40,086 nt of DNA from a virus: UHGV virus genome UHGV-0038373. One strand, written 5' to 3'. The notes beneath the pieces are model-generated. The model searched no databases and was not told where the DNA came from. It saw nothing but the letters and a program-made list of their open reading frames with translations. Each line of letters opens with the position of its first letter. Within the stretch, counting starts at the first letter, position 1. Both the position numbers and the translations under genes were made by a program. Positions 2,330-34,073 of the stretch are shown piece after piece.

Positions 2330-3547
2330 ATGAACAAGGCAGAGTTAGAAGCGCAAGCAAAATCTTTGTTGGCAGAAGGTAAACTTGACGAAGCTAAAAA
2401 AGTTATTGAACAGTTAGAAGCTTTGAAAGATGAAACACCAGCTGAAAACGAAGAACGTGCAGAAGATAAAGCAGAAGCACCTAAAGACGAAGTCAAAAAG
2501 GAAGAAGCCAAAGAAGAACCAAAGGAAGAACCAAAAGACGAAGTTAAAGACGAACCAAAGGAAGAACCAAAAAAAGAAGAACGTTCAATTGAGAACGCAA
2601 AAGGAGAAGATATTGACATGGAGAAAGTAAAAATCAATGGTAAAGAGTTAGCAGAGCCAGTAACAGAACAACGTGCGTTTTTAGACTACGTAACTTCAAA
2701 ATCAACTAGCGTAAAATCATTTAACGAAACACGTGCGGTTGATGACGGACAAGTTAAATCAACAGACGCAGAAGCAATTATCCCAGAAGATATTATCACA
2801 AAAGCACGTAAATTACCAGACACAGTTGTTGACTTACGTAATAAAGTGAACAGTATCAAAGTTAAAACATCTGGCGGTAAATACCCAATCTTGAAATCAA
2901 CTACTGCAAAAATGGTAACAGTTGAAGAGTTGGCAAAAAACCCAGCATTGGCAAAACCTGAATTTGAAGAAGTTCCTTACAACGTATCAACTTACCGTGG
3001 TCAAATTGTTGTATCACAAGAATCATTAGATGATTCAGCGGACGACTTAGCTGGAATTATTGCTGATTCAGTACAACGTCAAGGTTTAAACACAACTAAC
3101 TTTGTTTTAGCTAACTTGTTAAAAACAGCTACAGCAGTACCAGCAACTTCATTAGATGACATCAAAACACAGATTAACACTGGTTTCGACCCAGCATATG
3201 GATTGGAATTAATCGTTACTCAATCATTCTACAATGCAGTTGACATCATGAAAGACGGTGAAGGACGTTACTTATTACAAACTGACATTACAGCACAGTC
3301 TGGTAAATCATTGTTTGGTGTTCCAGTAACAGTGTTAAAAGATGAAATGTTAGGTGACAAAGGCAATAAAGTGGCATTCTTAGGCGACCCAGTAGCATTT
3401 GCAACATTCTTCAATCGTGCTGAAACTACTGCTCGTTGGATTGACCATGAAATTTACGGTCAATATTTAGCAATCTTCATGCGTTTTGATGCTAAAGTAG
3501 TAGACCCAGCGGCTGGAAAATTCATTACATTAACGCCTGCTCCCTAG
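2330..3547 (+). CDS. major capsid protein, HK97 fold, with N-terminal coiled-coil/EEPK-repeat delta (scaffold-like) domain
   Basis: 405 aa. Lys/Glu-rich N-terminal region with repeated EEPK(D/E)E units, then a typical HK97 MCP core. Position after the protease. Ends ...TPAP with a terminal CCC-UAG. Confidence 0.85.
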   Translation: MNKAELEAQAKSLLAEGKLDEAKKVIEQLEALKDETPAENEERAEDKAEAPKDEVKKEEAKEEPKEEPKDEVKDEPKEEPKKEERSIENAKGEDIDMEKVKINGKELAEPVTEQRAFLDYVTSKSTSVKSFNETRAVDDGQVKSTDAEAIIPEDIITKARKLPDTVVDLRNKVNSIKVKTSGGKYPILKSTTAKMVTVEELAKNPALAKPEFEEVPYNVSTYRGQIVVSQESLDDSADDLAGIIADSVQRQGLNTTNFVLANLLKTATAVPATSLDDIKTQINTGFDPAYGLELIVTQSFYNAVDIMKDGEGRYLLQTDITAQSGKSLFGVPVTVLKDEMLGDKGNKVAFLGDPVAFATFFNRAETTARWIDHEIYGQYLAIFMRFDAKVVDPAAGKFITLTPAP

Positions 3548-3604
3548 TACACCACCTGTGGTAGGACAGGTGACACCAGCAGACACAAGTGTAACAATTG
3601 AATT
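3542..3604 (+). repeat. 63-bp perfect direct repeat, copy 1 (CCC-UAG plus stem-loops); candidate recoding/RNA element
   Basis: Identical to 5920-5982. Starts exactly at the penultimate CCC codon of the capsid gene. Contains hairpin CACCUGU-GGUAGG-ACAGGUG and a second small palindrome ACACAAGUGU. Confidence 0.8.
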
Positions 3605-3616
3605 ATCGTAAACACT

Positions 3617-3647
3617 AAGAGGTGGGGCATACGCCTTACCTCTTTTT
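3617..3647 (+). terminator. rho-independent terminator after capsid gene
   Basis: AAGAGGT...ACCTCTT stem followed by a T run. Confidence 0.6.
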
Positions 3648-3672
3648 AAAATATAAAAGGAGAGTGTAAATT

Positions 3673-3873
3673 ATGGCTAAAGTATTTAACGTATACAAGA
3701 AGACAGGTGAAAAGATTGTGACTGAACAACCATCACCAGTAACAATCACAGGTTTAACAGCAGAAACAACATATGCAAAAGGTGATTTTCAAGTAACAGC
3801 TATTGAAGAAGGCAAGCCAGAATCTACAAAAGTAGATGTACCAGCATTCACTACAACTGCAACGGCTGGATAA
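3673..3873 (+). CDS. small Ig-like / FN3-like domain protein (possible capsid or tail decoration)
   Basis: 66 aa with an alternating beta-strand pattern (PSPVTITGLTAETTY...FQVTAIEEGKPES) typical of FN3/Big_2 domains. Own RBS AAAGGAG. Followed by a terminator at 3876-3898. Confidence 0.45.
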   Translation: MAKVFNVYKKTGEKIVTEQPSPVTITGLTAETTYAKGDFQVTAIEEGKPESTKVDVPAFTTTATAG

Positions 3874-3875
3874 TA

Positions 3876-3898
3876 AAAGAGGGCTAAGCCCTCTTTTT
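3876..3898 (+). terminator. rho-independent terminator
   Basis: AAAGAGGGC-TAA-GCCCTCTTT plus a T run. Confidence 0.6.
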
Positions 3899-3916
3899 AA
3901 CTAAGGAGGTATGATA

Positions 3917-4207
3917 ATGTTAACATTAGAAGAGGTGAAAAACAATCTACGTTTAGACTATGATTCAGACGATACTTATATTCAGACGTTGATTGATACA
4001 AGCTCAATGTTTATCTTAGGGGCTATTGAGGTTAAAACAGTTCCAGATGATGTACGCTTTAAAACTTGCCAGTTCATGCTGGTTTCTCTTTGGTATGAAA
4101 ACCGTGTTCCAGCAACCAGCGCACTTCAACAAGATGTACCGTTCACTATTCAGGCATTTATTTGGCAATTGAGGGGGTTATCTGATGATACCAACACAAC
4201 ATCTTAA
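3917..4207 (+). CDS. head-tail connector protein (gp6-like / Phage_connect_1)
   Basis: N-terminal 'LTLEEVKNNLRLDYDSDD' motif typical of gp6-like connectors. The second ATG at 3917 has better RBS spacing than the track start at 3911. Confidence 0.65.
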   Translation: MLTLEEVKNNLRLDYDSDDTYIQTLIDTSSMFILGAIEVKTVPDDVRFKTCQFMLVSLWYENRVPATSALQQDVPFTIQAFIWQLRGLSDDTNTTS

Positions 4208-4514
4208 TCAAAAAATAACTATCCAAGAGAAAACAACAGCTAAAAACGATAAATTTGAATGGGTAACAACGTGGGTTGACAAAGCTACTATATGGTGTAG
4301 TGTAAAACAACAGTATTTTAGAGATTTTAAAGAAACATATGGTACTGCATTAGAGGATACAACTAACTTTGTTGTGCGTTATGAACAGCGTTTCCAATTA
4401 CAAAATGATATGCGTGTTGTATATAAAGGTGTTAACTATGAGATAGTATCTATTTTAGAAGGTAGTTACGACCGTGATTTTACAACATTAGTATGTAAGA
4501 GGGTTAAGAAATGA
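4185..4514 (+). CDS. head closure / head-tail adaptor protein
   Basis: 109 aa, in the conserved position. Overlapping start and stop with neighbours (translational coupling). Confidence 0.55.
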   Translation: MIPTQHLNQKITIQEKTTAKNDKFEWVTTWVDKATIWCSVKQQYFRDFKETYGTALEDTTNFVVRYEQRFQLQNDMRVVYKGVNYEIVSILEGSYDRDFTTLVCKRVKK

Positions 4515-4918
4515 GTAAGCAGAATTATGCTGACTTTTCAGACGCATACAACGCACTTATAAAGATTGGTAAAAATGCAGATAGTATAACAGCAAAAGCA
4601 CTGAACAAAGCTGGTGAAATAGGAGAGCAAGAACTTGCTAAACGCACACCATATTGGAACGGTAAAAAGTACAGCAGAAAAGACCAGATGTACAAGCGTG
4701 AACATATGCAGAAAAATACAGCAATGACAAAAGCAAGCAAAGGTAAACATGAAGTCTTAATTGGGTATAATGACCAAGTTTCGTGGCGTGTTCACTTTAC
4801 AGAGTTGGGAACAATGACACAAAGACCGCAACATTTCATTGAAAAGACTATTAAAGAAGTTCAAGACGAAATAGAAAAGGTAATTATAAAAGCAATGGAG
4901 GAGGCGTTTCTAAAATGA
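4511..4918 (+). CDS. HK97 gp10-like tail-component / neck protein
   Basis: 135 aa in the third head-tail joining position, coupled ATGA overlaps. Confidence 0.5.
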   Translation: MSKQNYADFSDAYNALIKIGKNADSITAKALNKAGEIGEQELAKRTPYWNGKKYSRKDQMYKREHMQKNTAMTKASKGKHEVLIGYNDQVSWRVHFTELGTMTQRPQHFIEKTIKEVQDEIEKVIIKAMEEAFLK

Positions 4919-5280
4919 CATTACCTATTTTACAAGTGGCACAGATACTTAATGAAGCACACCCAGAAGTCAACTGGTTTACTAATGAAGTACCAAACGA
5001 ATTTGTGTCACTTCCTAAGTTGCCAGTAGGTAGAATCACAGAGCTAGACATGGACTATCACGCATATGCAAGTGCAGACCCAAATTATTATACAACCTAT
5101 ATCCAAGTGGATTTGTGGGTTGAAGATTTGACAATGTTGGATAAATACTATCTAGCAATTGATAAGACAATGCGTGCGGATAAGGTGCAATGTTCATTTA
5201 GTACACAGACCTATGAACCAGACCTAGAGGGAGCCAGTCGCATTGTTAAGCGATATGTAATCACTCAAAGAGTTGTCTAA
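4915..5280 (+). CDS. tail completion / tail terminator-like protein
   Basis: 121 aa, last gene before the major tail protein. Confidence 0.45.
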   Translation: MTLPILQVAQILNEAHPEVNWFTNEVPNEFVSLPKLPVGRITELDMDYHAYASADPNYYTTYIQVDLWVEDLTMLDKYYLAIDKTMRADKVQCSFSTQTYEPDLEGASRIVKRYVITQRVV

Positions 5281-5358
5281 GTGACGCCCTAAAACCAGTT
5301 GATTAATGATATAATTATTCTAGTAAGAAAATATAAACACTAAAGGAGAGAAACAATT

Positions 5359-5925
5359 ATGGCAGTAGTAGGTTTTAAAAAAGCTATTATCAGCGTACCT
5401 AAAGCAGAAGGTTCTGGCGTTGATAAATACACAATTGATAAAAGCGGTGGCGGTACTATTGAAGCGTCAATTCAAGGAATTTCAGCAGAACAAACAACCG
5501 TTTATGCGTCAAATGTTCCAATCTGGGTATCAGCAAAAGGGGTTGGAGAGTTAACAGCTTCATTAAACGTATTTGACTTGTATAAAGACAACGTTTATGA
5601 GAAAATTTTAGGCATTGAACGCGGTACAGATGGTATTGCAATTGTTGGCGAAAACACAGAAGCACCTTACGTTTCAGCGGTATTCGTTGCAGACGGTGCA
5701 GACGGTAAAGAAATGTACTTTGGCTTAGTTAAAGGACGTTTCAGCCACCCAGAAATCGCATTGAATACAACAGAATCTGGTGGTACAGAACCAAACACAG
5801 AAACAATTGAAGGTTCATTTGTAACAGATTCACGTGGCTTTGCATACATGAGTGCTGTTTCAAGCGAAACATTAACACTTGATAACTTTGTTGACAAAGT
5901 AAACAACATTAATTCATTACCCTAG
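5359..5925 (+). CDS. major tail protein
   Basis: 188 aa, Gly/Thr-rich, positioned between the head-tail genes and the gpG/gpT chaperones. Ends ...SLP with a terminal CCC-UAG, followed by the same 63-bp element as the capsid gene. Confidence 0.75.
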   Translation: MAVVGFKKAIISVPKAEGSGVDKYTIDKSGGGTIEASIQGISAEQTTVYASNVPIWVSAKGVGELTASLNVFDLYKDNVYEKILGIERGTDGIAIVGENTEAPYVSAVFVADGADGKEMYFGLVKGRFSHPEIALNTTESGGTEPNTETIEGSFVTDSRGFAYMSAVSSETLTLDNFVDKVNNINSLP

Positions 5926-5982
5926 TACACCACCTGTGGTAGGACAGGTGACACCAGCAGACACAAGTGTAACAATTGAATT
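5920..5982 (+). repeat. 63-bp perfect direct repeat, copy 2
   Basis: Identical to 3542-3604. Starts at the penultimate CCC codon of the major tail gene. Confidence 0.8.
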
Positions 5983-5987
5983 GACTT

Positions 5988-6017
5988 AGAAGAGCTGTCA
6001 AGCTCTTCTTTTTTTAT
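5988..6017 (+). terminator. rho-independent terminator after major tail gene
   Basis: GAAGAGC-TGTCAA-GCTCTTC plus a T8 run. Confidence 0.65.
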
Positions 6018-6100
6018 TACACTGGTTTCACCAACACCCACAATCATTGTTTTTAATGCTATAATAACTATAGTAAATAAAATTATTTGGAGGAATAACC

Positions 6101-6433
6101 ATGGCAAAACAAACAAAATCATTCAGTATTAACCTAATTATTGACGGAAAAAACCGCAAAATTACAAAAAAAGGTGTCAAAGTTAAGACAATGCGTAGCA
6201 TTATGAAGTATTACCGTGATATGGAAAATGTACAAAAAGACATGGCTAATGGTGTAGAAGTTGACCAATTAGAATTGTTAGATTCAATGATTGTATTATT
6301 AGTTGAAATCTTTGAACACCCAGAGGTTACATTTGAAGCAATTGAAAACTCAATTGAATCTGATGACTTAGTAGACGTTTTAGAAAACATCTTAGGAACT
6401 ATCATGGGGGTTGATGATTCAAAGGAAGCCTAG
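6101..6433 (+). CDS. tail assembly chaperone (gpG-like)
   Basis: 110 aa, acidic C-terminus, directly before the tape measure. Conserved G/T arrangement. Confidence 0.65.
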   Translation: MAKQTKSFSINLIIDGKNRKITKKGVKVKTMRSIMKYYRDMENVQKDMANGVEVDQLELLDSMIVLLVEIFEHPEVTFEAIENSIESDDLVDVLENILGTIMGVDDSKEA

Positions 6434-6671
6434 AGGACGGTGTAGAAGTTAACTGGGACGAATCTTTAGAATCACTAAATAAATTATATAATTCATACAT
6501 GGAAGGTGGTTGGACCGTTAATGATGTTAGCGAAGCTGACTACCTTCTTTTATTGGAATTATTTAGTGATAATACTAAAGAGAAAAAAGAAGAGAAACAA
6601 GACCCATTAGCATTTTTTGGCACTGTCCTATCACCAACAGACCTAGCAAAAGCAAAAGGAGAGATTGAATA
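6433..6671 (+). CDS. gpT-like extension reached by a -1 programmed frameshift from gpG (G-T fusion)
   Basis: The -1 frame is open from 6411 to the TAA at 6669-6671, which overlaps the TMP ATG (TAATG). The only possible slip window is 6411-6433 (..GAU UCA AAG GAA GCC UAG). A plausible one-tRNA slip at A AAG (6421-6424). Confidence 0.5.
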
Positions 6672-9600
6672 ATGGTAGATAAGGTTATTGGCAATATGAA
6701 GTTTGGTATTGGTGTTGACGGTGTAGACCAGACCATTAATACATTAGACAAATTAAACAAGTCAATTAAACAGCAAGAATCAGCAATGAAAGCCAATTTA
6801 TCAGTGTTTGATAAATCAGGACAAAGTATTGAGAAACTGCAACAAAAAGAAAAAGACTTGGCAACAGCTACTGACTTACAAGGTAAGAAAGTGGAATTAT
6901 TAAGCAAAAAGCGTCAAGACGCTATTGCAAAATATGGTGAAGAATCAAACCAAGTTAAAACACTAACAACACAGCTAAACAATGCTAGTGCCAAATACAA
7001 CGGAATGCAAAAAGATTTGCAAAAAACTACAGCTGATGTTATCAAGTTTGAGAATGGTTTAGACAAACTAGGTCAAGAAATTAAAGATAACGCAAAAGAC
7101 TTCCAAACACAAGCCAATGCAATGGATAAAGCTGGCGACAAAATGGGTGCTTTGGAAACAAAACAAGCTGGTTTAAAACGTCAATCTGACCTAACTAAAC
7201 AGGCTATTGCTGGTCAAGAAAACGCAATCCAACAGTTAACACAAAAGTTTGGTAAAAATTCAACAGAAGTTAGCAAAGCTGAACAAGAGTTACAAGGCTT
7301 TAAAAAGCAATTAAACAATACAGACAGTGAACTAGATTCAGTATCTAAAGGAATGCAAGAACTAGGTAAATCAAGCGGTGAAACTAGCGAAGGTTTAGGA
7401 TTAGCAAGTAAAGGACTACAAGGTTTAGTTGCTGGTGTTGGTATGGCGGTAGCTACCAAAGCAATTGATATGATTAGTGACGCTGTTTCAGAAGTTGTTG
7501 AAAATATTAATGCTGGTATTGAAGCGGTTGACAAATTCAAAGGCGCATTTGATTGGGACGCAGAGAGCGCCCAAGCTGTTTCAAGGTTAGCTAACCAATT
7601 AGTTGCAGAAGGTTATTCAGACGACATCAACGAAGTAGCAGAAGCAATGATACGTGTTCAAAATGTAATGGGTGCTGAGGGCATGGATGACGACATGCTA
7701 CAACGCATGACACGTAATGCAATCGCATTTTCTAAAAATACTGGTGCAGACGTGAACGAAACTATTCGTGGCATTGGTAAAATGATGACCAACTTTGGTA
7801 TTGACGCAGACCATGCTTGGGACTTAATGGCACGTGGCGCACAGATGGGACTTGACCAAACAGACGAACTAGGCGACAACATGGCTGAATACTCACAGAT
7901 TTTTGGTCAAGCTGGTTTCACAGCAGAACAAACATTTGACATGTTACAAAGTGGTTTAGATGGTGGAGCATACAACTTAGACAAAGTCAATGACTTAATC
8001 AAAGAAATGGCTATTTCATTAACAGATGGTCGTTTTGAAGACAACATAGGTATGTTCAGCGGTCAAACACAAGAGTTGTTTAGACAATGGCAACAAGGAG
8101 GAGCAACACAAGCGGATGTTATCCGTTCAATGATTAGCGACTTTGGAGGTATGGAAAACCAATATGAAGCACTAAACAAAGCTGGGACAATCTGGTCCGC
8201 ATTAGGTGAAGATAACTCACTACAAGTTATCAGGTCATTAAACAATACATCAATGGCATATGACAATGTAGAAGGCGCACAAGACGCAATGAACAACGCA
8301 ATGAGCAACACAACTGGAATGGACGCTTTTAAGTCCTCATTGAGGGCTGTTGGGAATGAAATAGGTATATCCTTAAATCCAATGTTTGGTAAGGCGGCAG
8401 ATGCTATTACAAACTTTACAGAAAAAATTCTACCAAAGATAGAACCAGCATTAAAAAAAATGTGGGAGTATGCAGGTCCTATTCTTGAAAAACTGGGTGG
8501 ATATTTAAGCACCAGCTTTGAGGTTGTTGGTGACATTATGGGTACAGTTGTTAAATATGTTAGCGAGGAACTACTACCTACTCTAATGCCTAAGATTCAA
8601 GAACTAGGAGATAAGTTGGGTGGATTATTTGATAAGATAAGCAAGTTCTGGGATGAACATGGCGAGACCATACTATCTGGTCTTAGTTTCTGGCTAGAGA
8701 AACTAACTCCATTATTTGGTTTAGCGCTGGAGGTTGTAATTGGTTTTGTGGATGCCGCTATCGGTTTAGTGGATGGTTTTTTCAAGATTATTGAAGGATT
8801 GACTGATGTTTTTGAAGGTATATTCAACGGAGATTGGGGTAGAATATGGGAAGGTATTAAAAAAATATTCTGGGGGGCTATTCAAGTTATTTGGAATTGG
8901 ATAAACCTATCATTCTTTGGTAAAATATTAAGCGGTGCAGCTGGTTTTGGAACCATATTTAAAAAAGGTATGTCTACAATGTGGGCTGCAGTCAAAGGAT
9001 TCTTTTCAAAAGGTATAACTGGCATAATTGATGACGTGTGGCGGTGGTTCAGTAGGGTTACAGGCATTGGTGGTAACTTAAAAAGTGGACTTACAGGTAC
9101 TATGAAAACCCTATGGGGTGATATAAAAGGGGTATTCAGCCGTGGTATTGACACCATTGTACGTTGGTTTACTAGTTTGCCAGAACGTTTAGGCAGTGCA
9201 ATTAGTAGGGGCGCAGGTCATGTTACTGGTGCATTTAAAGGTATTTTCAATAAGGTATTGAGTGCAATTGGCGGTCCAGTAAATGGTATCATTGGTGGTG
9301 CTAACTGGGTGTTAGAAAAGTTTGGCGCACCTCAAATTTCAAAATGGGACGTACCACAATATGCAAACGGTACTGACGGACACATAGGCGGACCTATGGT
9401 TGTAAATGACGGCGGTGGTGCTGAAATGGTAATTGCACCAAACGGTCAAGCAATGATTCCAAAAGGTAGAAACGTTATGATGAATGCACCAGCTGGCACA
9501 CAAGTACTAAATGCCAAAGAAACATCAATGGTATTAGGACAAAAAGGGCGCATTCCATTTTATAAAAAAGGAACTGGTTTCATGGACGGTGTTCGCAACA

Positions 9601-25758: not shown

Positions 25759-25782
25759 TGTTTATCCTCCCTTATTTTATGT

Positions 25783-25815
25783 ACCTACTATATCACATGA
25801 TATAGTAGTTGTCAA
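25783..25815 (-). promoter_or_regulatory. promoter with palindromic operator, copy 1 (TTGACA-N17-TATAGT inside ACCTACTATA-N8-TATAGTAG)
   Basis: Minus-strand TTGACAactactatatcatgtgaTATAGT. The inverted repeat overlaps the spacer and -10. Drives the Prim-Pol operon. Confidence 0.6.
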
Positions 25816-25988
25816 CTATTTAATTGTATAAAATACTAATTTATCTAATTTTAATGTGAATGTTTCTGAATCACCAAACTTAATTTCTAAAAAACGTTGT
25901 GTGATATATACGCCTGTAACATTAGTAAATAAGATATTTCTATTATCTTCGCCAGCCATAAAATTTACTGTTACTTCATTTAATTTTT

Positions 25989-27284
25989 TCATTTTAAAAT
26001 ATCCTCCATCATTTCATTAGTAAAGTCTTTTCCATTTGTTACTGTTTCAAAAATCTTTTTCTCTGTTGGTGTTTCAGGCAAAATATGGTAGTACATAGGT
26101 GTCTTAGTTTGACCATAACGGTCTGTGCGTGCCTTGGATTGTTCATAATTGATTGATTCTAAAGGCATTGAATTGTAAATTGTCACATTCGCAATAACAA
26201 AGTCATTAATACCTGTAGAGGCTGATTTGTAGTGTGCTAGCACAACTCCGTTGTCTTTACCTTTAAATGCCTTTAAGTCTTTGCTAGCACCGTTATATTG
26301 GCTATATGGGCGTTTTAACTTGTCTAATACTTGTTTCAACATTTCAACTTCTACATTGTAATTATAAAATATAACTATTCGTTCATCATTGTGTGTTTCA
26401 ATAATCTGGTTCAGTCGTTCAAATGGTTCTTTACTTACCTGTTTATTGATTCCTAACAAGAAACCATGTGACACACAACGCATTGCATTAAATAGTTTAC
26501 TACTATTATCTAATTCAATAACTTCACCGTTATCAGCTTTGTACATGCGGTTCTTTTTCAATTTAGCGTACATTGCTGGCTTCTTAGTCTTTAATACATA
26601 ATCTTCTGGGAAGTAGTCTTTATCACGCTTAAAACGAACAGCAACACTATTTATCATATCATTTAATAAATGCTCGTTCTGATACCCAACAATTTGCATG
26701 AATCTCATTGAACCCATTTGGCGCATTTGCTTAATAACAAATAGTTCTTCAAACTCTTTTTTAGGCTTGCGGAATACATTAAGCATATATAGTTGTGGAT
26801 AATAATTTTCAAGTTTTCCATTACTAACTGGTGTTGCTGTTAATAGTCTAACATACTTGGTTTTCTTTGTCAACTTCATTACAAACTTGGTAACATTAGA
26901 ACTTGTTACACCAACTTTGTGCGCTTCATCAATAATTATAAATGTGTCTTTATCAACCCACTTCAATAATTCAGTGATACGCCAAACACTTTCAAAACTG
27001 ATTGCCACTTTATCTGATTCAGCTAATAACACTTTGTTTTTCTTTGTTCCTTTATTTAGTGGTGTAATAGCAATATCCATCAATGCACCATCTTCTCCAA
27101 AGTCTGCAACCTTAGGTGCTAAACAGATAACTAATAACTTACTGCACCCAGATTGCAGGTAGGCACCTAATGCAGTGAATGTCTTACCTGTTCCAGCATC
27201 TGATAAATCGTAAGGGTGTGTATTCCATTTCTTAATACCTTCAACTTGTGTTGGTAATAATTCAATTTTTCCAATCTTAGTCAT
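25989..27284 (-). CDS. DEAH-box / SNF2-like superfamily-2 helicase
   Basis: Walker A 'DAGTGKT', DEAH box 'IIIDEAHKV', C-terminal helicase domain. Likely start MTKIGK at 27284 with a GGAGG RBS (track ORF extends to 27374). Confidence 0.75.
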   Translation of the reverse strand: MTKIGKIELLPTQVEGIKKWNTHPYDLSDAGTGKTFTALGAYLQSGCSKLLVICLAPKVADFGEDGALMDIAITPLNKGTKKNKVLLAESDKVAISFESVWRITELLKWVDKDTFIIIDEAHKVGVTSSNVTKFVMKLTKKTKYVRLLTATPVSNGKLENYYPQLYMLNVFRKPKKEFEELFVIKQMRQMGSMRFMQIVGYQNEHLLNDMINSVAVRFKRDKDYFPEDYVLKTKKPAMYAKLKKNRMYKADNGEVIELDNSSKLFNAMRCVSHGFLLGINKQVSKEPFERLNQIIETHNDERIVIFYNYNVEVEMLKQVLDKLKRPYSQYNGASKDLKAFKGKDNGVVLAHYKSASTGINDFVIANVTIYNSMPLESINYEQSKARTDRYGQTKTPMYYHILPETPTEKKIFETVTNGKDFTNEMMEDILK

Positions 27285-27666
27285 ACCACACCTCCAACTT
27301 GTCATCTGCAATATCTGGTAAATCTGGTTGTTCATAATTGAAATAAATATCATCTGCACCATAGTACACTGCACTTTCCATGTTATCCAAATAAAGTAAT
27401 AGGTCCTCTAAATCGTCAAGCGTATCTCTTAATAGTAAACCATATCCACCAGCACATCTAACCTCTTGTAAATATCTAATCTGTAATGGGTCTGGTTGGT
27501 AGTTACCTGTTTTAAGCTCTAAAGCGATATAATAGCCACTATAACACGCTTCAACATCTGCACGACCAACACGGTCATATATGCTTGCAGTATTGACGTT
27601 TACTAATGCACCTTTAGCTTTCAAATAGTCTACTACTTCTCTACTAAATTTAGATTCCTTTCCCAT
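27277..27666 (-). CDS. VRR-NUC domain nuclease
   Basis: 129 aa. 'GRADVEACYSGYYIALELKTGNYQPDPLQIRYLQEV' matches the PD-(D/E)xK VRR-NUC core. Confidence 0.65.
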   Translation of the reverse strand: MGKESKFSREVVDYLKAKGALVNVNTASIYDRVGRADVEACYSGYYIALELKTGNYQPDPLQIRYLQEVRCAGGYGLLLRDTLDDLEDLLLYLDNMESAVYYGADDIYFNYEQPDLPDIADDKLEVWYD

Positions 27667-27883
27667 AGTTTGAACCCCCTTTTTTATTACCTTGTAACAT
27701 ATTTGTTATAAGTTCAATACCTTCTTCTACGTCAATTCCTTGTTGGCTGAATAGTCCTAACATTGCTAACGTACCATATGTTAAATATTTTTCCATCTCT
27801 TCCTGTGTAATACCTTTAGTTCTGAAATCATTTTCCATTTCACTCAAAATATTATCAATTGCAATAATCCGTTCTGTTTTCAT
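27650..27883 (-). CDS. hypothetical protein (77 aa)
   Basis: ORF. Confidence 0.3.
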   Translation of the reverse strand: MKTERIIAIDNILSEMENDFRTKGITQEEMEKYLTYGTLAMLGLFSQQGIDVEEGIELITNMLQGNKKGGSNYGKGI

Positions 27884-27885
27884 TT

Positions 27886-28095
27886 TTATTCTTCCTCTCC
27901 AATTACTAATTCAATTGCGCCCCACGATTCATTGTAACTGATATTCAATACTTTTGTCAACTCACTATACTTATTAAATAATCGTGCTACTGACTTGTCG
28001 CTTGTTGTGTCAATTACTAATGCAGTCATACCATTTGATTCTTTCACTACTAAAAAATGACTGTCAACCACTTCATACGCTTGTAATAAATTCAT
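27886..28095 (-). CDS. hypothetical protein (probable start at MNLLQAYE; track ORF to 28122)
   Basis: AAGGAGGA RBS upstream of the internal ATG. Confidence 0.3.
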   Translation of the reverse strand: MNLLQAYEVVDSHFLVVKESNGMTALVIDTTSDKSVARLFNKYSELTKVLNISYNESWGAIELVIGEEE

Positions 28096-28096
28096 G

Positions 28097-28267
28097 TTAT
28101 TTGTCCTCCTTATCGTCGTCACTGAACATTAAAATTAAAAATACTAGTGAAAATGTTGAACCTAATGTTGGACCAACTGAATCCGTTGAACCTGTAAATA
28201 CTATTGTAAAAATCGCCACTAACGCACCTACTAAAATTGCTACTAAAATATTCATATTTTTACTCAT
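28097..28267 (-). CDS. small two-TM membrane protein (56 aa, below the track cutoff)
   Basis: GGAGGA RBS. Sequence MSKNMNILVAILVGALVAIFTIVFTGSTDSVGPTLGSTFSLVFLILMFSDDDKEDK. Confidence 0.35.
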   Translation of the reverse strand: MSKNMNILVAILVGALVAIFTIVFTGSTDSVGPTLGSTFSLVFLILMFSDDDKEDK

Positions 28268-28268
28268 T

Positions 28269-28541
28269 TTATTTATCCTCCAATTTGTTAATTCGTTTTT
28301 CTAATTCGTTAATTAATTGTTCATTATCTAATGATTGAGTGATACTTGATACTTCAATTCCTGATACTACTTTGTACTCCAAGATAATATCTTGTTGACG
28401 TTCGTTCAATTCTTTGTATAAGTGTAATTCTTGTTTAGCTTCATTCAATTTCTGCTTGTTTAAGTTGTTTGCCAACATTGCTGTACTTCCTGAAAAACTC
28501 AATCCTACTGCCAATCCAATGATTAATCCTTTATGTTTCAT
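28269..28541 (-). CDS. small secreted coiled-coil protein with a Sec signal peptide
   Basis: 'MKHKGLIIGLAVGLSFSGSTAMLA' signal peptide, then a coiled coil. Confidence 0.4.
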   Translation of the reverse strand: MKHKGLIIGLAVGLSFSGSTAMLANNLNKQKLNEAKQELHLYKELNERQQDIILEYKVVSGIEVSSITQSLDNEQLINELEKRINKLEDK

Positions 28542-28589
28542 TTATTTATTCCTCCTAATTGATTATATACTTAGTATAAATGATTGTCT

Positions 28590-29033
28590 TTATTTTGTCA
28601 AGTGTTTTGGTAAATTAATTTTTAAATTTTTGTCATATCGCCTTGGGTCAAGTGTCTTGTGAACGTCATCTACTTTGTTTAGATAGCTTGTAATTACTTT
28701 ACCACTTAATAGTGACACCACAATACACTGTACTTCTTTGTTTTTTGAATAGTGTGAACGTAGTAAAATGCGCTTGTCTGCGCCTGTTTCGTTGTACTCT
28801 ACAATTGTACTATTTAACATGGTTTTCATTGTCATTTCATATGAAAATTTAGTTTCACCATTTCTTATTTTATCTTGTAAGTGAAAACCAATCTTGATGC
28901 CACGTTTTAGCCATAAATCTTTTACACGTTCTCTAGCGTTATATACTTGTTCAACTTCCTTGTGTGTAAAGTGTGAAGCGTGTTTCTTTACTTGTCCTTG
29001 CGTTTTCTTTACTGTTCCAATTTGAAAGTCCAT
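28590..29033 (-). CDS. hypothetical protein (147 aa), monocistronic with its own promoter
   Basis: Basic protein. Promoter TTGACA-N17-TATACT upstream (29040-29083). Confidence 0.35.
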   Translation of the reverse strand: MDFQIGTVKKTQGQVKKHASHFTHKEVEQVYNARERVKDLWLKRGIKIGFHLQDKIRNGETKFSYEMTMKTMLNSTIVEYNETGADKRILLRSHYSKNKEVQCIVVSLLSGKVITSYLNKVDDVHKTLDPRRYDKNLKINLPKHLTK

Positions 29034-29069
29034 TTCATATCCTCCCTTTAACTTATGTACTAAGTATAT

Positions 29070-29110
29070 CAGTTGGGGTTGAACTTGTCAACCCCAACTG
29101 ATTTTTATTT
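29070..29110 (+). terminator. plus-strand-oriented hairpin plus T run that overlaps a minus-strand promoter
   Basis: CAGTTGGGGTTGA-ACTTG-TCAACCCCAACTG then ATTTTTATTTT. On the minus strand the same sequence supplies TTGACA-N17-TATACT. Confidence 0.45.
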
Positions 29111-29293
29111 TAAATTTTCTAATACTGTTTCAGTTAGTAAAATCACATCTAACATTTTTTCTAGTCTATCGTTTAGTTCATGTCCTAGTTCTTTGTTTCC
29201 GTTGTCGTATGCTTCAATCATTTGCGCTTTTAACTCGTCATATCTTTTATTTAGTCTTTCTAATTTAGCTTCATATCTTTGTTTTGTTGTCAT
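29105..29293 (-). CDS. hypothetical coiled-coil protein (62 aa)
   Basis: ORF with AAAGGAGG RBS and its own promoter TTGACT-N17-TATACT. Confidence 0.3.
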   Translation of the reverse strand: MTTKQRYEAKLERLNKRYDELKAQMIEAYDNGNKELGHELNDRLEKMLDVILLTETVLENLK

Positions 29294-29337
29294 GTTTGTT
29301 TCCTCCTTTTAACTTATGAACTAAGTATATCATGCTA

Positions 29338-29378
29338 AAAAAAGAAAGTCAACTGTTTTAGTCAACTTTCTTTAATGT
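29338..29378 (-). terminator. minus-strand terminator with an embedded -35 box (terminator-promoter unit, copy 1)
   Basis: Minus-strand AAAGAAAGT-loop(contains TTGACT)-ACTTTCTTT followed by a T run. Its paralogue is at 31000-31042. Confidence 0.5.
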
Positions 29379-29379
29379 T

Positions 29380-30960
29380 TTAGAAAATATTATCTGTTTC
29401 AGTAAAGTTGTTAGCCCATTTGATATTGGTTAGCACATACTGTGGTTTTCCGTTAACTCGTTTTTTAACTCTGTTTAATACAATATTCTGCGATTTACGT
29501 TGTAGTTCTGGCACAAACTTGCGAGCTGAAACGGTCATTAGTCCTTCATTAACTAACATATCGTTATATGCTTCTAATAATTCGTTTGTTTGGATAAATG
29601 AGTTTTCATCTTCCACGAACTCAATTTCGTTCATGTCAATAAAGTTTGCCATTGTGTCATTTCCTTGGATAAAGGCATCACGCAATTTATTTGCATTATC
29701 ACTGGTCCAGAAGTGTCCTTTGGTTTCTCCATTTAGTCCAAATAGTACATTTCTATATTGTTGTAAACAGTAGCTGATAAACTCTGATTTTTCTTCATAT
29801 GTGAAATTCTTTGAACGTTCCAGCCACATTGAATCTGTTGGGTTATCTCTTCCCATAGTCTTGTTAAATGGTAATGTGATAATACGGCGCAAAAAACCAT
29901 GTGAGGTGTCTGAAAACGTAGGCATGTTATTAGTTGTGAAAATCATTAGTGCGTAGTTCGTAAATGTGAACTTGTTAATACCTTTGTACTCTGCACTCAT
30001 AACGTCATTACCTGATAATGTTTTCAGTGTACCTGTTTGTTTAATATGCTGTGCTGGCATATCTGTTTCAATATTCACCATTTTACCAAATAATTGAGAG
30101 CTTGCGAATTTGTCATTATTACCTGACAAGCTAGCTAGTGTTGCATGACTTGTATTTGATTTTCCTACTAGTTCCTCAATAAATGCCATAACGTGAGATT
30201 TACCGTTACTACCTTCACCAGTTGCGAATACCATTGCTTGTGGGTCTTGGTTGCGGTATAAAATACGTCCAATCAATTGGAAAAGTGTTTTTGCGTCCTC
30301 TTCTAAAATATACTCAATCCATTCAGCAACGATATTGTGCTTAGGGTTCTCAATATAATCATATTCAATTCTTGTTGTTTGGTAGTCCTCTTTCACAGTT
30401 GGCTTTAATGTGTCCTCTTTAAAGCGATATGTGCCATTTTTAAAGGCTATTTTGTTTGGGTCCATTTTGTCATTAAATGGTAAGTTAGCACCAGAAGCAA
30501 GCGCATTTTTTGCCATTCTTTGGACTGCATTTCTAAATTGGTTAGCAACCTTTGCATTTTCTGCATAATGTGGTGTGTAGACCATCATAAATTCATTGTA
30601 AAGCTTTTGCCATAAACGAGCTTCTAAATTGTCCTCTGATACCTCATAAATTTTTGTGTCATGGTTGTAAACCACTGGTAAACCAATTGTGGAGCTGGCA
30701 TGAACAGGTAATACCTTAGCCATGTGAACTGCCAAGGCTTCTGCGTTTAAGCCGTCATAACTTGGTTCTGGTCGTTGTGGTTCTGCATTCTTAGCCGCAT
30801 CTCCATTTTTGAAGTCAACTTCCCACTCCTTGTGGTCCTTTTCGTAGTCTGATAATGCTTTCATATATTGCTTGCTAGGTGTCAAAGTCTTTTCAAGCGT
30901 GCTGATAAAACTTAATTCAACTGGTTGGTCATATTCAACTTTTTGTAATTCATTTACCAT
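29380..30960 (-). CDS. D5/P4-type primase-helicase (D5_N-like region, SF3 helicase with Walker A GEGSNGKS, P4-type C-terminal DNA-binding domain)
   Basis: 'FATGEGSNGKSHV' P-loop. C-terminal '...SARKFVPELQRKSQNIVLNRVKKRVNGKPQYVLTNIKW'. Confidence 0.75.
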   Translation of the reverse strand: MVNELQKVEYDQPVELSFISTLEKTLTPSKQYMKALSDYEKDHKEWEVDFKNGDAAKNAEPQRPEPSYDGLNAEALAVHMAKVLPVHASSTIGLPVVYNHDTKIYEVSEDNLEARLWQKLYNEFMMVYTPHYAENAKVANQFRNAVQRMAKNALASGANLPFNDKMDPNKIAFKNGTYRFKEDTLKPTVKEDYQTTRIEYDYIENPKHNIVAEWIEYILEEDAKTLFQLIGRILYRNQDPQAMVFATGEGSNGKSHVMAFIEELVGKSNTSHATLASLSGNNDKFASSQLFGKMVNIETDMPAQHIKQTGTLKTLSGNDVMSAEYKGINKFTFTNYALMIFTTNNMPTFSDTSHGFLRRIITLPFNKTMGRDNPTDSMWLERSKNFTYEEKSEFISYCLQQYRNVLFGLNGETKGHFWTSDNANKLRDAFIQGNDTMANFIDMNEIEFVEDENSFIQTNELLEAYNDMLVNEGLMTVSARKFVPELQRKSQNIVLNRVKKRVNGKPQYVLTNIKWANNFTETDNIF

Positions 30961-30999
30961 TGTTATTCCTCCTAATATCTTATGACATTACTATACCCT

Positions 31000-31042
31000 C
31001 TAAAAAAGAGAAAGTCAACTGTTTTATTTAACTTTCTCCCTT
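31000..31042 (-). terminator. minus-strand terminator with an embedded -35 box (terminator-promoter unit, copy 2)
   Basis: GAGAAAGT-loop-ACTTTCTC plus a T run. TTGACT-N17-TATAGT promoter for the primase-helicase gene. Confidence 0.5.
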
Positions 31043-31060
31043 ATCATAGCATATTTAATT

Positions 31061-31252
31061 TTAAAAATGTTTGTCGTATTGGTATATGCCAATCCATGCT
31101 AGTATAGTTATTACTTCTGTAATTGCGATACATACCCATGCAATAACTTTTAGATTAAGTAATAAAATAATTACTACAAGACCACTTGCGCCAACTGCTA
31201 ACATACTTATTACAATAAATACTGCTATTTCAAGTGCTTCTAATTTACTCAC
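31061..31252 (-). CDS. small membrane protein (63 aa)
   Basis: Two hydrophobic helices. Confidence 0.35.
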   Translation of the reverse strand: MSKLEALEIAVFIVISMLAVGASGLVVIILLLNLKVIAWVCIAITEVITILAWIGIYQYDKHF

Positions 31253-31473
31253 TTTGCTTCCTCCTCAAGTGTAATGTCTAAATCATAAATTATTCCTGTG
31301 TAATCTTCATTAATCAGTTGTAAATGAAATGACCTAACTTTAGAATCAAAGTATTCTTTTAACTCTTTGTTGTCCGTGTGTACATCTGCTGTTTTTACAA
31401 TGTCAACACCTTTGAATATATAACAGGTATCAATATCATTTTCAATTGAATATAATAAATCTTCTACTGTCAT
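31249..31473 (-). CDS. small acidic protein (74 aa)
   Basis: Coupled ORF, strongly acidic. Confidence 0.35.
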   Translation of the reverse strand: MTVEDLLYSIENDIDTCYIFKGVDIVKTADVHTDNKELKEYFDSKVRSFHLQLINEDYTGIIYDLDITLEEEAK

Positions 31474-31688
31474 TTTGTTTCCTCCTCAAATTGTTGTTTC
31501 TGCGCTTTGGTTGCTTTTGTGTCACACATGGTGGGTTGCTTGTGTATCCATGTTTTAGAAACCATGTGTATTTCATTATCTAATAATGTGATAAAATAAC
31601 CACGTGTGTCTATCTGGTCAATTCTGTAAATATTTAAGTCATCTGTGGAAGCCCATATTGAGCCAATCACCTTTACTGAATCACTCAA
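31470..31688 (-). CDS. small protein (72 aa)
   Basis: Coupled ORF. Confidence 0.35.
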   Translation of the reverse strand: MSDSVKVIGSIWASTDDLNIYRIDQIDTRGYFITLLDNEIHMVSKTWIHKQPTMCDTKATKAQKQQFEEETK

Positions 31689-31909
31689 TCTGCATCCTCC
31701 AATACATATAAGATTGAATCAAGTGGTATGGTGATAAATGTGTCTTGCATTTCACCATCAATTTCAATTGCTTCTGGTTTTTCTAATTTTAATAATTTTT
31801 CATCATTTTCAACTGCTTTTTCATACATTACTAAAATTGGTTCTTCTGTATATAATGTGAAAAGTTCATTATTTGTTAGACAAATATAATAGTTTGTTTT
31901 GGTTGTCAT
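31685..31909 (-). CDS. small acidic protein (74 aa)
   Basis: Coupled ORF, acidic. Confidence 0.35.
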   Translation of the reverse strand: MTTKTNYYICLTNNELFTLYTEEPILVMYEKAVENDEKLLKLEKPEAIEIDGEMQDTFITIPLDSILYVLEDAD

Positions 31910-31930
31910 TCTTATTCCTCCTAATCTTCA

Positions 31931-32007
31931 ATATACTTGATAATGTTGTAAGTTCCCCAGATTCCAATTGTTACAAATACTAAACCAAATACTGACATGT
32001 TGTTTTC
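31931..32007 (-). CDS. 25-aa hydrophobic peptide (MSVFGLVFVTIGIWGTYNIIKYIED)
   Basis: Strong TAAGGAGGAA RBS 6 nt upstream. Sits immediately downstream of the palindromic promoter, at the position held by the 68-aa membrane protein in the paralogous cassette. Confidence 0.35.
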
Positions 32008-32026
32008 CTCCTTAGTTATCTTATAC

Positions 32027-32060
32027 ACCTACTATACCATCAGATATAGTAGGTGTCAAG
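32027..32060 (-). promoter_or_regulatory. promoter with palindromic operator, copy 2 (TTGACA-N17-TATAGT; ACCTACTATA-N8-TATAGTAGGT)
   Basis: Minus-strand TTGACAcctactatatctgatggTATAGTaggt. Perfect 10-bp inverted repeat. Confidence 0.65.
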
Positions 32061-32064
32061 TGTT

Positions 32065-32472
32065 TTATAAATAATTTTGTTTTTTTAAAAATTCAAGTGA
32101 TTTTTTAGCTTCTTTTAATTTCATTCGTTTTTCACGCAATGAGTCTTCTTGTTCTTTGATACGCATTCTTTTGTTATGCAAGTTTGTTTGTTCGTTTGCT
32201 AACTGTTTAATTTTATAGTCAATCGCTTCTAAAGTGTCTACTTTGATATTTGCTTTCAATTCAGTTAGTTCTTCTTTTTCTACTAATTCATATTGCGTTT
32301 CTGAAATGAAATAACTTGGGTGTTCTTCGTTCAAATAAATACGGCAGTCATCACTTAAAACATCATCATACGATACAATTTTATAGGTTTTACCAATTTC
32401 TAAACCGTTTCTTTCGTCCATTCCATTGAATCCAGCATATTTTGTAATTTTAGCATATTTATATTTTTTCAT
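32065..32472 (-). CDS. early protein, paralogue A (N-terminal approximately 70-aa 'GKTYKIV...YIYLN' domain plus coiled coil)
   Basis: About 50% identical to 34074-34460 over the N-terminal domain (MKKYKYAKITKY...GLEIGKTYKIV...YFISE.QYELVEKEE). Confidence 0.45.
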   Translation of the reverse strand: MKKYKYAKITKYAGFNGMDERNGLEIGKTYKIVSYDDVLSDDCRIYLNEEHPSYFISETQYELVEKEELTELKANIKVDTLEAIDYKIKQLANEQTNLHNKRMRIKEQEDSLREKRMKLKEAKKSLEFLKKQNYL

Positions 32473-32701
32473 TTCTTTTTCCTCCTTAGTTATATTCCAT
32501 ATTATATAGTCTTTCTTTCATTTTGTCAAGTAATTCATATATGAATTGTTCTTCATTTGGTGGGAATAGTGTTTCAGTTGCAAAGCCACCATAAGTACAT
32601 CTTACTGCTACATAACCATGTATTGGCTCATAACGCATAATGAAATGATAATCCTTGCCGTTGAAACGTGTTCCTTTTTTCAGTCCATGTGTGTATCATT
32701 A

Positions 32702-32920
32702 TTACTTCAACTCTCTATTTTTATAATGGCGTTTCATGCTTTGTACTTCTGTAATACGTCCGCTGATACGTTGAATGCGTTGTGTAATGTTTGCCACAAT
32801 ACTTTGGTCTACTTGTGCCTTACATAGTTCTGCTGATAGTCTTTCGCAAGCTTCCTTTTGTTCATAAATTAATTCTGATTCTCTTTCGTTTAATAATTCA
32901 ATCATGTTTGTTTCCTCCAA
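32702..32920 (-). CDS. hypothetical coiled-coil protein (72 aa)
   Basis: ORF with a promoter plus TGGTTTA inverted repeat upstream. Confidence 0.35.
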   Translation of the reverse strand: MEETNMIELLNERESELIYEQKEACERLSAELCKAQVDQSIVANITQRIQRISGRITEVQSMKRHYKNRELK

Positions 32921-32937
32921 TATATTTTTATTTGTTG

Positions 32938-32990
32938 TGGTTTACATTTATTATACTAAACCATGTTTGGTAATTTGTCAATACTTTTGT
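32938..32990 (-). promoter_or_regulatory. promoter region with inverted repeat TGGTTTAC-N10-(C)TAAACCA, copy 1
   Basis: Paralogous to 35380-35424. The -35 TTGACA is at 32984-32979 (minus strand) and the inverted repeat flanks the -10. Confidence 0.5.
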
Positions 32991-33213
32991 TTAAAAAGTA
33001 TTGAAGAATTTCAATATATAGTGAACCAGTTGGTGTTGTTGAAATAATCATTACCTCACGTTCAAGGTGTGGTTCAATTTTTTTCATATTCTTTGGTATA
33101 TTCTAGTTCTTTTGATTCTGTTAAAATGCAAATCTCTTTATCTGTGCCATGTTGTACTAATACCACCGTTTTATCATATTCAACTAACATTAGTAATTGT
33201 CCTAGTGTAAGGA

Positions 33214-33606
33214 TTATTCTTCCTCCTTAAATAATTCATTATATAATTCTTGAATTCCTTCACGTTTTACTTTTAACATTGCAATCTGTGCTGATATTAT
33301 ATTACTTGGCTTTCCTATCAAATTTCCTGATAAGCGATTAATATCCTTATTATATTGAACAAGTGTTCGCTGGAATACACCTCTAATCGTAGTTCGTTCA
33401 TCAATATTAACCAGCTTAAATTTTGAATCCCAAAATTCATTTAGGGTTTTTTCTAAGTTAAATAGGTTTGGTGCATACTCTGGTACCTCACCATCATTGT
33501 CTATAATACCATAGCCAAGCGCATTTTTAATAATGTCATACTCTTTGCCTTCTGTGAAAAATGGTTCTTGTGGGTCTGCTTTTGTGCATTTCATTGTGTA
33601 TTTCAT
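33214..33606 (-). CDS. early protein carrying the shared 'GKEY.I...YGIIDNDG' domain (130 aa)
   Basis: 'TEGKEYDIIKNALGYGIIDNDGEVPEY' matches the domain seen in 32065, 34074 and 34461. Confidence 0.4.
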   Translation of the reverse strand: MKYTMKCTKADPQEPFFTEGKEYDIIKNALGYGIIDNDGEVPEYAPNLFNLEKTLNEFWDSKFKLVNIDERTTIRGVFQRTLVQYNKDINRLSGNLIGKPSNIISAQIAMLKVKREGIQELYNELFKEEE

Positions 33607-33792
33607 TTATGCTTCCTCCCATTCTTGTACTTCATATCGTTGTTCATAATTAATGAAGAAGTCTGATGGGTTTCTGAAATATACATCTTGTGCTAATGCT
33701 TTTTCCATTGTCTTTCTCCATGTATTACCTGCTGCAACGTTTGTCAATGTTTCTTTGTCAACTACTACATATATTGTCATTTCATTTCCTCC

Positions 33793-33999: not shown

Positions 34000-34024
34000 T
34001 TTAATTCCTCCAATTTGTTTGTTG

Positions 34025-34059: not shown

Positions 34060-34073
34060 AGGTGTCAAGTGTT

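Follow-up and report, generated by a model that had tools for sequence, protein, structure and literature searches.

The window analysed here, i.e., the whole 40,086-nucleotide stretch of the UHGV virus genome UHGV-0038373, raises the question of why the genes encoding the major capsid protein and the major tail (tube) protein of one phage should run into the same 63 nucleotides, starting in both cases at the penultimate codon. The answer that we favour, to which we assign a probability of about 0.65 on the basis of the sequence and of analogy with characterised phages, is that a +1 slip of the ribosome would add a shared C-terminal tag to both proteins, and that this tag would dock a 66-residue partner, tag and partner being the two parts of a split FN3 domain.

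The two stretches, 3542-3604 and 5920-5982, were retrieved by a repeat finder as a direct repeat with two copies (family D9), identical at 63 out of 63 positions; the number of exact repeats of this length expected by chance at the composition of the window is about 3e-27. Both copies start at the penultimate CCC codon of an open reading frame (ORF), namely the capsid and the tail-tube gene (Table 1), each of which ends with CCC TAG, and the bases on their 5' side are unlike each other (gct before CCC at the capsid site, tta at the tail site). The repeat search and the ORF ends thus agree with an earlier note on this DNA, which had described this identity, its starting point, and the differing sequence upstream.

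The codon at which the repeat begins is uncommon. Among the 40 ORFs of the window, CCC is the rarest proline codon (7 out of 328), and two of these seven are the two penultimate codons; moreover, when both strands of the window are considered, the hexamer CCCTAG occurs at positions 3542 and 5920 only. No tRNA genes are encoded in the window, nor is there a slippery heptamer on the 5' side of the stop. The window comes from an Enterococcus phage, whose structural region shares 95-97% identity with phages G01, MSF2, and TwoStep and 75-80% with the named Efquatrovirus species; both sites were collected from 20 Enterococcus phage genomes, for a total of 40 sites, 37 of which are of the main type and correspond to 30 unique sequences (a scan of IMG/VR using the capsid protein gave 9 close loci only). 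Whether the element begins at a CCC-stop in relatives had been posed by the earlier note as a check, and this turned out to be the rule, with CCC TAG at 34 of the 40 sites; a zero-frame CCC is kept within the overlap of the two frames at 38 of the 40.

In the +1 frame, the capsid site reads PSTPPVVGQVTPADTSVTIELS followed by a stop and the tail site ends with IELT and a stop, so that 21 residues are added after the proline in each case. This frame is open in all the 30 unique sequences, and both other frames have stops in all 30. The ratio between synonymous and non-synonymous codon differences among the same sequences is 1417:1155 in the +1 frame versus 103:2363 and 103:2316 in the other two, synonymous differences being 14-fold commoner in the former, and 12 of the 25 variable columns are third positions of the +1 frame. 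The changes include a serine codon passing from AGT to TCA and a leucine codon from TTG to CTG, as well as Asp/Glu, Val/Ala, and Thr/Ser swaps; the ends of the two window copies diverge (TTA TCG TAA versus TTG ACT TAG), yet the length and the type of residue stay the same, and in all the relatives the 21-residue extension is closed by a conserved stop. Substitutions that follow the +1 codon structure in this way represent the signature of a translated peptide rather than of an RNA element. Furthermore, at the 40 sites the +1 ORF spans only 24-28 codons between stops and has neither an ATG nor a ribosome-binding site (RBS); lacking an ATG, it could not be initiated independently. None of the 118 database homologs of the tail-tube protein (122-192 residues each) carries the tag in frame, which fits a regulated minority product. 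Lastly, the two copies of the tag within one genome differ on average by 5.4 out of 63 nucleotides, versus 9.0 for pairs from different genomes (permutation p < 1e-4), which could reflect gene conversion, co-adaptation of the copies to one partner, or both.

These data, together with the rarity of CCC, the conservation in Efquatrovirus relatives and the precedents of SPP1 and PSA considered below, support the idea, already advanced in the earlier note, that the +1 frame at the ends of both genes is translated by programmed frameshifting and gives the two proteins the same 21-residue tag. The shifted capsid and tube products would be expected to release the tryptic peptides FITLTPAPSTPPVVGQVTPADTSVTIELS and VNNINSLPSTPPVVGQVTPADTSVTIELT.

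What the tag might do is suggested by a small ORF, preceded by a terminator and by an AAGGAG RBS, that starts 61 nucleotides 3' of the capsid tag. Its 66-residue product is labelled in databases as a "major tail protein" (PHROG 341, E 3e-19); Pfam scans of this protein alone gave nothing, and a weak match to Pfam fn3 covers profile positions 32-81 only, with an E-value of 0.086 for a fusion. A profile of its family retrieved 655 representatives among 1.8e9 proteins; of the 150 best ones, 47 begin exactly at the first family position, corresponding to strand C, and in multi-domain relatives sequences such as PPTVESVTPTDTTASIEM, and then a loop, stand before the strand C-G segment. An FN3 hidden Markov model (HMM) was built from 198 contiguous units, picked solely by their homology to the 66-residue protein and extended blindly by 32 upstream residues. 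When 16 tags taken from six phage lineages were compared with this HMM, 15 aligned to its positions 2-22, i.e., to strands A-B, each being equalled or beaten by 0-9 of its own 200 shuffles (0 for the capsid tag and 1 for the tail tag of the window); the 66-residue protein covers positions 32-93, and tag and protein joined give one domain from position 3 to position 93, scoring 55.8 bits, with a single gap of eight residues in the BC loop. A contiguous tag-plus-partner protein was not retrieved from a database of 5.8e9 sequences by a word-indexed search, which reaches close Enterococcus relatives only.

The AlphaFold2 model of the 66-residue protein has a predicted local distance difference test (pLDDT) score of 89.7, and its best structural match is BppA of Tuc2009. 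In a single-sequence model of an artificial fusion between the tag and this protein (pLDDT 76.9), strands are called at tag residues 15-19 and at VTITGL, in the E-strand segment, and VTITGL is not assigned as a strand when the protein is modelled alone; its appearance together with that of the tag strand is as expected if strand B were to pair with strand E. Hence, the tag appears to be the A-B hairpin, and the 66-residue protein the C-G remainder, of one FN3 domain; the extension, with its 21 residues and conserved stop, is not a complete Ig-like or FN3 domain, and the resemblance to a proline-rich Ig-domain linker suggested in the earlier note gave way to this assignment, with the ORF at 3673-3873 as the partner. 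In published data, an Efquatrovirus homolog of 7.0 kDa was detected by mass spectrometry with 94% coverage. Since the 66-residue gene is located beyond the capsid terminator and lacks a promoter-like element, a lower expression than that of the capsid is plausible. Ribosomal hopping from the tag stop to this ORF was also considered and discarded: the frames differ, there is no in-frame pair of matching take-off and landing codons, the ORF is provided with an RBS, and no partner ORF lies downstream of the tail copy.

A domain completed in this way is known from the crystal structure of Tuc2009 (PDB 5E7T), where BppU ends in a 25-residue hairpin that "completes one of the beta-sheets" of BppA domain 2 (230-286), forming a titin-like composite (PMC4742702). 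The C-terminus of BppU (KPPTNLIVSDVTSTSAKISWENGG, then the stop) corresponds to positions 3-23 of our HMM and BppA residues 230-281 to positions 34-88, so that the split point is the same as that of the window pair. The two systems differ in that the Tuc2009 hairpin is in frame on a baseplate protein, with the half-domain at the C-terminus of a 286-residue carbohydrate-binding protein, whereas in the window the hairpin would be brought to capsid and tail tube by frameshifting, and the half-domain is a free-standing protein of 66 residues. Fragment-complemented monobodies and the SpyTag/SpyCatcher pair are engineered split FN3 and CnaB domains, in which a short strand or hairpin docks into an incomplete beta-sandwich, covalently in the case of SpyTag; unlike them, the window system would be natural and presumably non-covalent.

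As for the frameshift, CCCUAA is an established +1 site in SPP1, where slippage from the rare CCC to the frequent CCU places an 87-residue FN3 domain on about one in four tail tube subunits (PMC6316719). The pair gp17.1/gp17.1* resembles what is proposed for the window in the rare CCC located right before the stop of the tube gene, in the slip to CCU, and in the extended minority form (about 3:1) bearing FN3 (PMC6316719); however, in SPP1 the whole FN3 domain is in cis and on the tail only, whereas in the window 21 residues (strands A-B) would be added to capsid and tail, the remainder being the product of a separate gene. Long forms of Cps and Tsh that arise by frameshifting near the 3' ends of their genes, as proposed here, are also known for Listeria phages PSA (and A118) and for Lactobacillus phage A2, as cited in PMC5221750. 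The tsh gene of PSA was indeed found to end with CCC UGA, as the earlier note had stated, with an annotated slippage product; nevertheless, the two PSA extensions are unrelated to each other (48 residues, SAP/HeH-like, on cps; 24 acidic residues on tsh), whereas in the window the same peptide occurs twice and matches a half-domain. Neither PSA extension is FN3-like, and for this reason PSA was not counted as a further member of the tag system. Finally, the Ig-like domains added by frameshifting that Fraser et al. (2006) described, as cited in PMC5221750, would share with the window an accessory Ig/FN3 decoration whose stoichiometry is set by recoding, but in that class whole domains are fused in cis, whereas the window domain would be split over two polypeptides. 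On the fate of the HeH-type module we note that the PSA capsid extension (locus L026, 5148-5290) carries its SAP/HeH-like motif (VVELKEELDKRGI) by frameshift fusion, and that in Tuc2009 (locus L025, 12184-12384) a separate HeH/LEM-domain gene lies right after the capsid gene, so that another small module is found either recoding-fused or free-standing.

Similar arrangements recur in other phages. In the Staphylococcus Triavirus phiSa2wa_st121mssa, capsid and tube genes end with UUA CCC AGC UAA, and the +1 frame gives the tags PAKPQKVNVTAKAKSAVISAE and PANPQNVEVAVNSKSATVSAE, respectively, each followed by a stop; the gene after the tube gene starts with MTKTLKVYKG, at strand C, and runs on into a Big_2 domain. 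In matrix-assisted laser desorption/ionisation (MALDI) analyses of intact virions of the Triavirus phages 3A, 42E, and 47, the partner protein was found at its ORF mass of 15.86 kDa (PMC5923470) and is therefore a separate virion polypeptide. The tube protein of phiEf11 ends in frame with PSVESVTPTFDGASTELS and a stop, the partner (MVDTFKIYKG...) starting 15 nucleotides on; the capsid gene ends with A AAA AAA TAG, where a -1 shift would give KIEAPKVESVIPTTDGASIVLS and a stop, this being the 21-residue extension by which the authors of the phiEf11 study accounted for two capsid bands in virions (PMC5221750). In Latilactobacillus phage TMW 1.591 P1, the capsid tag would be reached via a -1 shift at A AAA UAA and the tube tag via a +1 shift at CCC UAA, and a gene for a 73-residue partner lies 3' of the capsid gene. 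In phage K (locus L022, 2792-4201), gp150 ends in a tag, gp151 consists of a half-FN3, a Big_2 domain, and a tag, and gp152 is a half-FN3 of 75 residues; according to MALDI data, they are separate virion polypeptides of 23,069, 17,718, and 7,818 Da (PMC5923470). The tail spike gp29 of Bxb1 ends with TPPNVSALHVDVSATSTSITITPSGAVDDA and a stop, and the next protein, the wing base gp30, starts at strand C; according to a later paper (PMC12646305), gp30 is seen attached to the tail spike by cryo-electron microscopy.

Overall, the tag is attached by +1, by -1, or in frame, and a partner starting at strand C is present in every lineage examined, its gene lying directly after the tag in phiEf11, phage K, Bxb1, and the Triavirus tail gene. 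We would give even odds to the broader view that phages of Gram-positive hosts, including mycobacteriophages, share a natural, non-covalent split-FN3 tag-and-receiver system, in which capsid, tail-tube, baseplate, or spike proteins carry an A-B hairpin of about 20 residues, added either in frame or by a +1/-1 frameshift that sets the occupancy. In this view, the recruited strand-C-start proteins may carry Big_2, a carboxypeptidase, or another tag, thus allowing chains (as in phage K gp150-gp151-gp152), and the 66-residue protein of the window would serve head and tail. Two further observations concern these phages. The products of the three consecutive phage K genes, gp150, gp151, and gp152, look as if a single protein (N-domain, FN3, Big_2, FN3) had been cut within each FN3 at its BC loop. 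In phiEf11 (locus L021, 4483-4503), the tail TAA and the ATG of the partner are in the same frame, so that readthrough would yield a contiguous FN3; the tail protein ran at 28-30 kDa in published denaturing polyacrylamide gel electrophoresis (SDS-PAGE) versus 21.5 kDa predicted (PMC5221750).

A hairpin of seven base pairs, beginning five nucleotides after the UAG, is present in all the minimum-energy folds of both window copies. Four synonymous positions in its stem are invariant in the 30 unique sequences, third positions further 3' vary freely, and variation within the hairpin is limited to the loop and to the closing pair (U-A to U-G). The invariant synonymous stem sites are suggestive of a role of the hairpin as a frameshift stimulator, and strong hairpins (z from -3.5 to -4.9) lie 3' of the IME_EF3 capsid site and of the -1 sites of phiEf11 and the Latilactobacillus phage. 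The stable hairpin placed six nucleotides downstream in the earlier note is thus a real fold, with a spacer of five nucleotides instead of six and a stability that is unremarkable when compared with shuffled sequences.

Putting these elements together, we can depict the following possible mechanism. A fraction of the ribosomes that reach the end of the capsid or tail-tube mRNA would pause with tRNA-Pro on the rare CCC and UAG in the A site, slip by +1 to CCU, possibly helped by the hairpin, and translate 21 more codons, STPPVVGQVTPADTSVTIEL(S/T). The outcome would be sub-stoichiometric capsid and tube subunits bearing the same C-terminal peptide, whose A-B hairpin would complete the 66-residue C-G half-domain in trans, as the BppU hairpin does with BppA domain 2; in this way, one small gene would decorate both head and tail with FN3 domains, at an occupancy set by the efficiency of frameshifting. 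More speculatively, the reconstituted FN3 domains might act as weak surface-adhesion or stabilising decorations, and in relatives further Big_2 domains might reach the same tags as parts of larger partner proteins. Judging from sequence comparison and from homology to the Tuc2009 complex, a shift at this site, the assembly of tagged subunits, and the docking of the 66-residue protein are the most likely course of events in the window phage.

Part of this scheme could hold without the rest. The frameshift and the tag might be real and the tag work alone, as a flexible surface peptide, an assembly or chaperone signal, or a signal matching heads with tails, the 66-residue protein being an unrelated decoration or tail protein; the evidence for +1 translation is indeed independent of any partner, and the PSA extensions show that such additions vary in kind, none of them being FN3-like. 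We consider this unlikely, since the tags of six lineages align to FN3 strands A-B, each lineage having a strand-C-start protein, encoded in four cases directly after the tag; moreover, the split point equals that of BppU/BppA, where completion in trans has been seen in a crystal, and half an FN3 without strands A and B would leave its core exposed.

We hold it even less probable that the 63 nucleotides are untranslated, representing either an RNA element at the 3' end, involved in stability, processing, or termination, or a scar of recombination or gene conversion, with the FN3-like frame as the decaying remnant of a once-fused domain. The nucleotide identity of the two copies, their concerted evolution within genomes, the high conservation of synonymous sites in the 5' half, where the hairpin lies, the terminators after both copies, and the fact that the shifted protein is unobserved would all agree with this; on the other hand, the 30 unique sequences follow the +1 codon structure without a stop ever arising, the ORF length is held where the nucleotides diverge, and it is the peptide rather than the nucleotides that is conserved out to Staphylococcus, Latilactobacillus, and phiEf11, via differing recoding routes or in frame. 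Furthermore, Rfam gave no relevant match at E <= 1 within 3300-6200, the folding energy is ordinary, and ordinary terminators stand separately after each tag, all of which speaks against the stability or processing element that the earlier note had kept as its alternative. A different recoding event, i.e., zero-frame readthrough of UAG, a -1 shift, or independent initiation of the mini-ORF, appears very improbable: among stops UAG is comparatively leaky, and the same tag would be reached through -1 sites in phiEf11 and in the Latilactobacillus phage, but the zero and -1 frames reach stops in the window and in 30/30 unique relatives (the zero frame of LY0322 being closed after 12 codons), the +1 mini-ORFs have neither an ATG nor an RBS, and a slippery heptamer is missing 5' of the stop.

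Several points weigh against the split-FN3 frameshift scheme. Six of the 40 sites are not CCC-stop: four of them (the capsid and tail sites of IME_EF3, the EFap02 capsid site, and one metagenomic tail gene) have CCC AGY with the stop 1-5 codons on, the tag still being in +1, so that the slip there would have to occur without a stop in the A site, and two natural sites have no CCC (GCC TAG in the tail gene of the metagenomic relative L007, and TCC GAA TAA in that of EFap02). The folding energy of the element gives z values of +0.09 and +0.45 with dinucleotide shuffles and of -0.7 and -0.4 with mononucleotide ones, and no compensatory stem changes occur among the 30 unique sequences, so that the covariation that the earlier note had asked about did not emerge. 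Junction-spanning peptides have not been reported for either site; the published mass spectrometry on Efquatrovirus and Triavirus searched or assigned annotated ORFs only, with the tail protein listed at its unextended mass, and the authors of the phiEf11 study saw no extension peptide (PMC5221750). The vB_EfaS-271 sample analysed by mass spectrometry also held non-structural proteins, and the virion association of the 66-residue protein is thus unproven there. Lastly, docking in trans in the window phage rests on homology to Tuc2009, and the fusion model is single-sequence and artificially linked, with unreliable residues 1-10 and weak Foldseek E-values.

The features of the two sites are collected in Table 1.

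Table 1. Coordinates of the two gene ends, the putative tags, and the proposed partner gene in the window.
Feature	Position	Strand	Basis or remark
Major capsid protein gene (zero frame), ending CCC TAG	2330..3547	+	Pfam PF05065 Phage_capsid, E 3e-24; PHROG 10, major head protein
Putative capsid shift site CCC UAG, P-site slip from CCC to CCU	3542..3547	+	Rare Pro codon followed by a stop
Predicted +1-frame tag ORF on the capsid gene, P-STPPVVGQVTPADTSVTIELS, stop TAA 3609-3611	3543..3611	+	Translation; coding-type substitutions; FN3 HMM positions 3-21
7-bp hairpin CACCUGU-GGUAGG-ACAGGUG, possible frameshift stimulator	3553..3572	+	Minimum-energy fold
Terminator-like hairpin and T-run after the capsid tag	3617..3650	+	
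RBS AAGGAG (3657-3662) and 66-residue ORF (3673-3873)	3657..3873	+	FN3 strands C-G half-domain, proposed tag partner
Major tail (tube) protein gene, ending CCC TAG	5359..5925	+	Pfam PF04630 Phage_TTP_1, E 3e-8; PHROG 88
Putative tail-tube shift site CCC UAG	5920..5925	+	Rare Pro codon followed by a stop
Predicted +1-frame tag ORF on the tail-tube gene, P-STPPVVGQVTPADTSVTIELT, stop TAG 5987-5989	5921..5989	+	Translation; coding-type substitutions; FN3 HMM positions 3-22
7-bp hairpin, second copy	5931..5950	+	Minimum-energy fold
Terminator-like hairpin and T-run after the tail tag	5988..6017	+	

The surroundings are those of a standard siphovirus late module, with genes for portal, protease, capsid, and connectors as well as for the tube, the chaperone, and the tape measure. 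An ORF of 57 residues (6499-6672), abutting the tape measure gene, comes after that of the tail assembly chaperone (6101-6433, PF23857). In the close relative TwoStep, a homing endonuclease gene is inserted in the structural region, and the match to 2330-6100 is broken into three pieces. As for the relatives with deviating gene ends, the tag ORF of L007 is intact at its tail-tube site (7590-7600), which represents a natural test case for the need of CCC. In EFap02 (locus L019), whose tail gene end without CCC lies at 4032-4046, the homolog of the 66-residue ORF (1795-2012) is broken by one extra A in an A-run (MAKVFNIYKKRWF, then a stop); this reflects either the loss of the system in nature or a sequencing error in the homopolymer. 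In this phage, the tags of capsid and tail belong to two different types, so that the genome is mosaic.

Moreover, an element of about 61 nucleotides occurs in three copies sharing 62-70% identity (family D4; 2248-2308, 5273-5333, and 6023-6083), located just 5' of the capsid, tail-tube, and tail-chaperone genes, respectively; the copies contain TGATATACT, TGATATAAT, or TGCTATAAT, motifs that resemble extended -10 late promoters. Together with the terminators after the tags, they suggest that capsid and tube genes each form a transcription unit of their own. A candidate promoter inside the 63-nucleotide element (GTGACA-17-AACAAT) was dropped, being weak (9/12) and having a terminator directly 3'. 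Several families of repeated intergenic elements (D1-D3 and D6) lie within 25771-35453 and are probably early promoter/operator regions; they comprise a 54-nucleotide family with an internal palindrome (CCTACTATA...TATAGTAGG) at 25771, 29308, 30974, 32015, and 34024, and the same region harbours a 241-nucleotide duplication with 78% identity (32246-32486 and 34234-34474). Short tandem and dispersed repeats of the ATGAAGAAC type (families D7 and D11) are found at 35662-35827.

As regards novelty, frameshift-extended capsid and tail proteins are already known, and so is a single crystal structure in which a hairpin completes an FN3 half-domain. We could not find described the combination proposed here, that is, a frameshift delivering the docking hairpin only, the same hairpin on head and tail, a free 66-residue remainder, and an apparent spread over several phage groups; the literature searches yielded nothing specific on Efquatrovirus frameshifting or on a split FN3/Ig domain in phages, and cryo-electron microscopy studies of phages NF5 and 812 proved to have no bearing on the matter, although the Bxb1 structure paper may describe the gp29/gp30 case. 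A mark for a frameshift is likewise absent from the deposited annotations of the Enterococcus phage relatives inspected.

If this scheme is true, it would account for the tiny "major tail protein" ORF located after the capsid gene and for the unannotated conserved stretch that follows two genes in many Enterococcus phages, a group that includes many candidates for therapy, and it would imply two recoding events per genome that are currently missed by annotation pipelines. The 21-residue tag and its 66-residue partner, being already displayed on head and tail, would also represent a ready handle for decorating phage particles, leaving the essential genes untouched. Finally, frameshift-extended structural proteins and the composite domain of BppU and BppA would be joined as one modular attachment principle, seemingly recurring in phages of Staphylococcus, Lactobacillaceae, and Mycobacterium.

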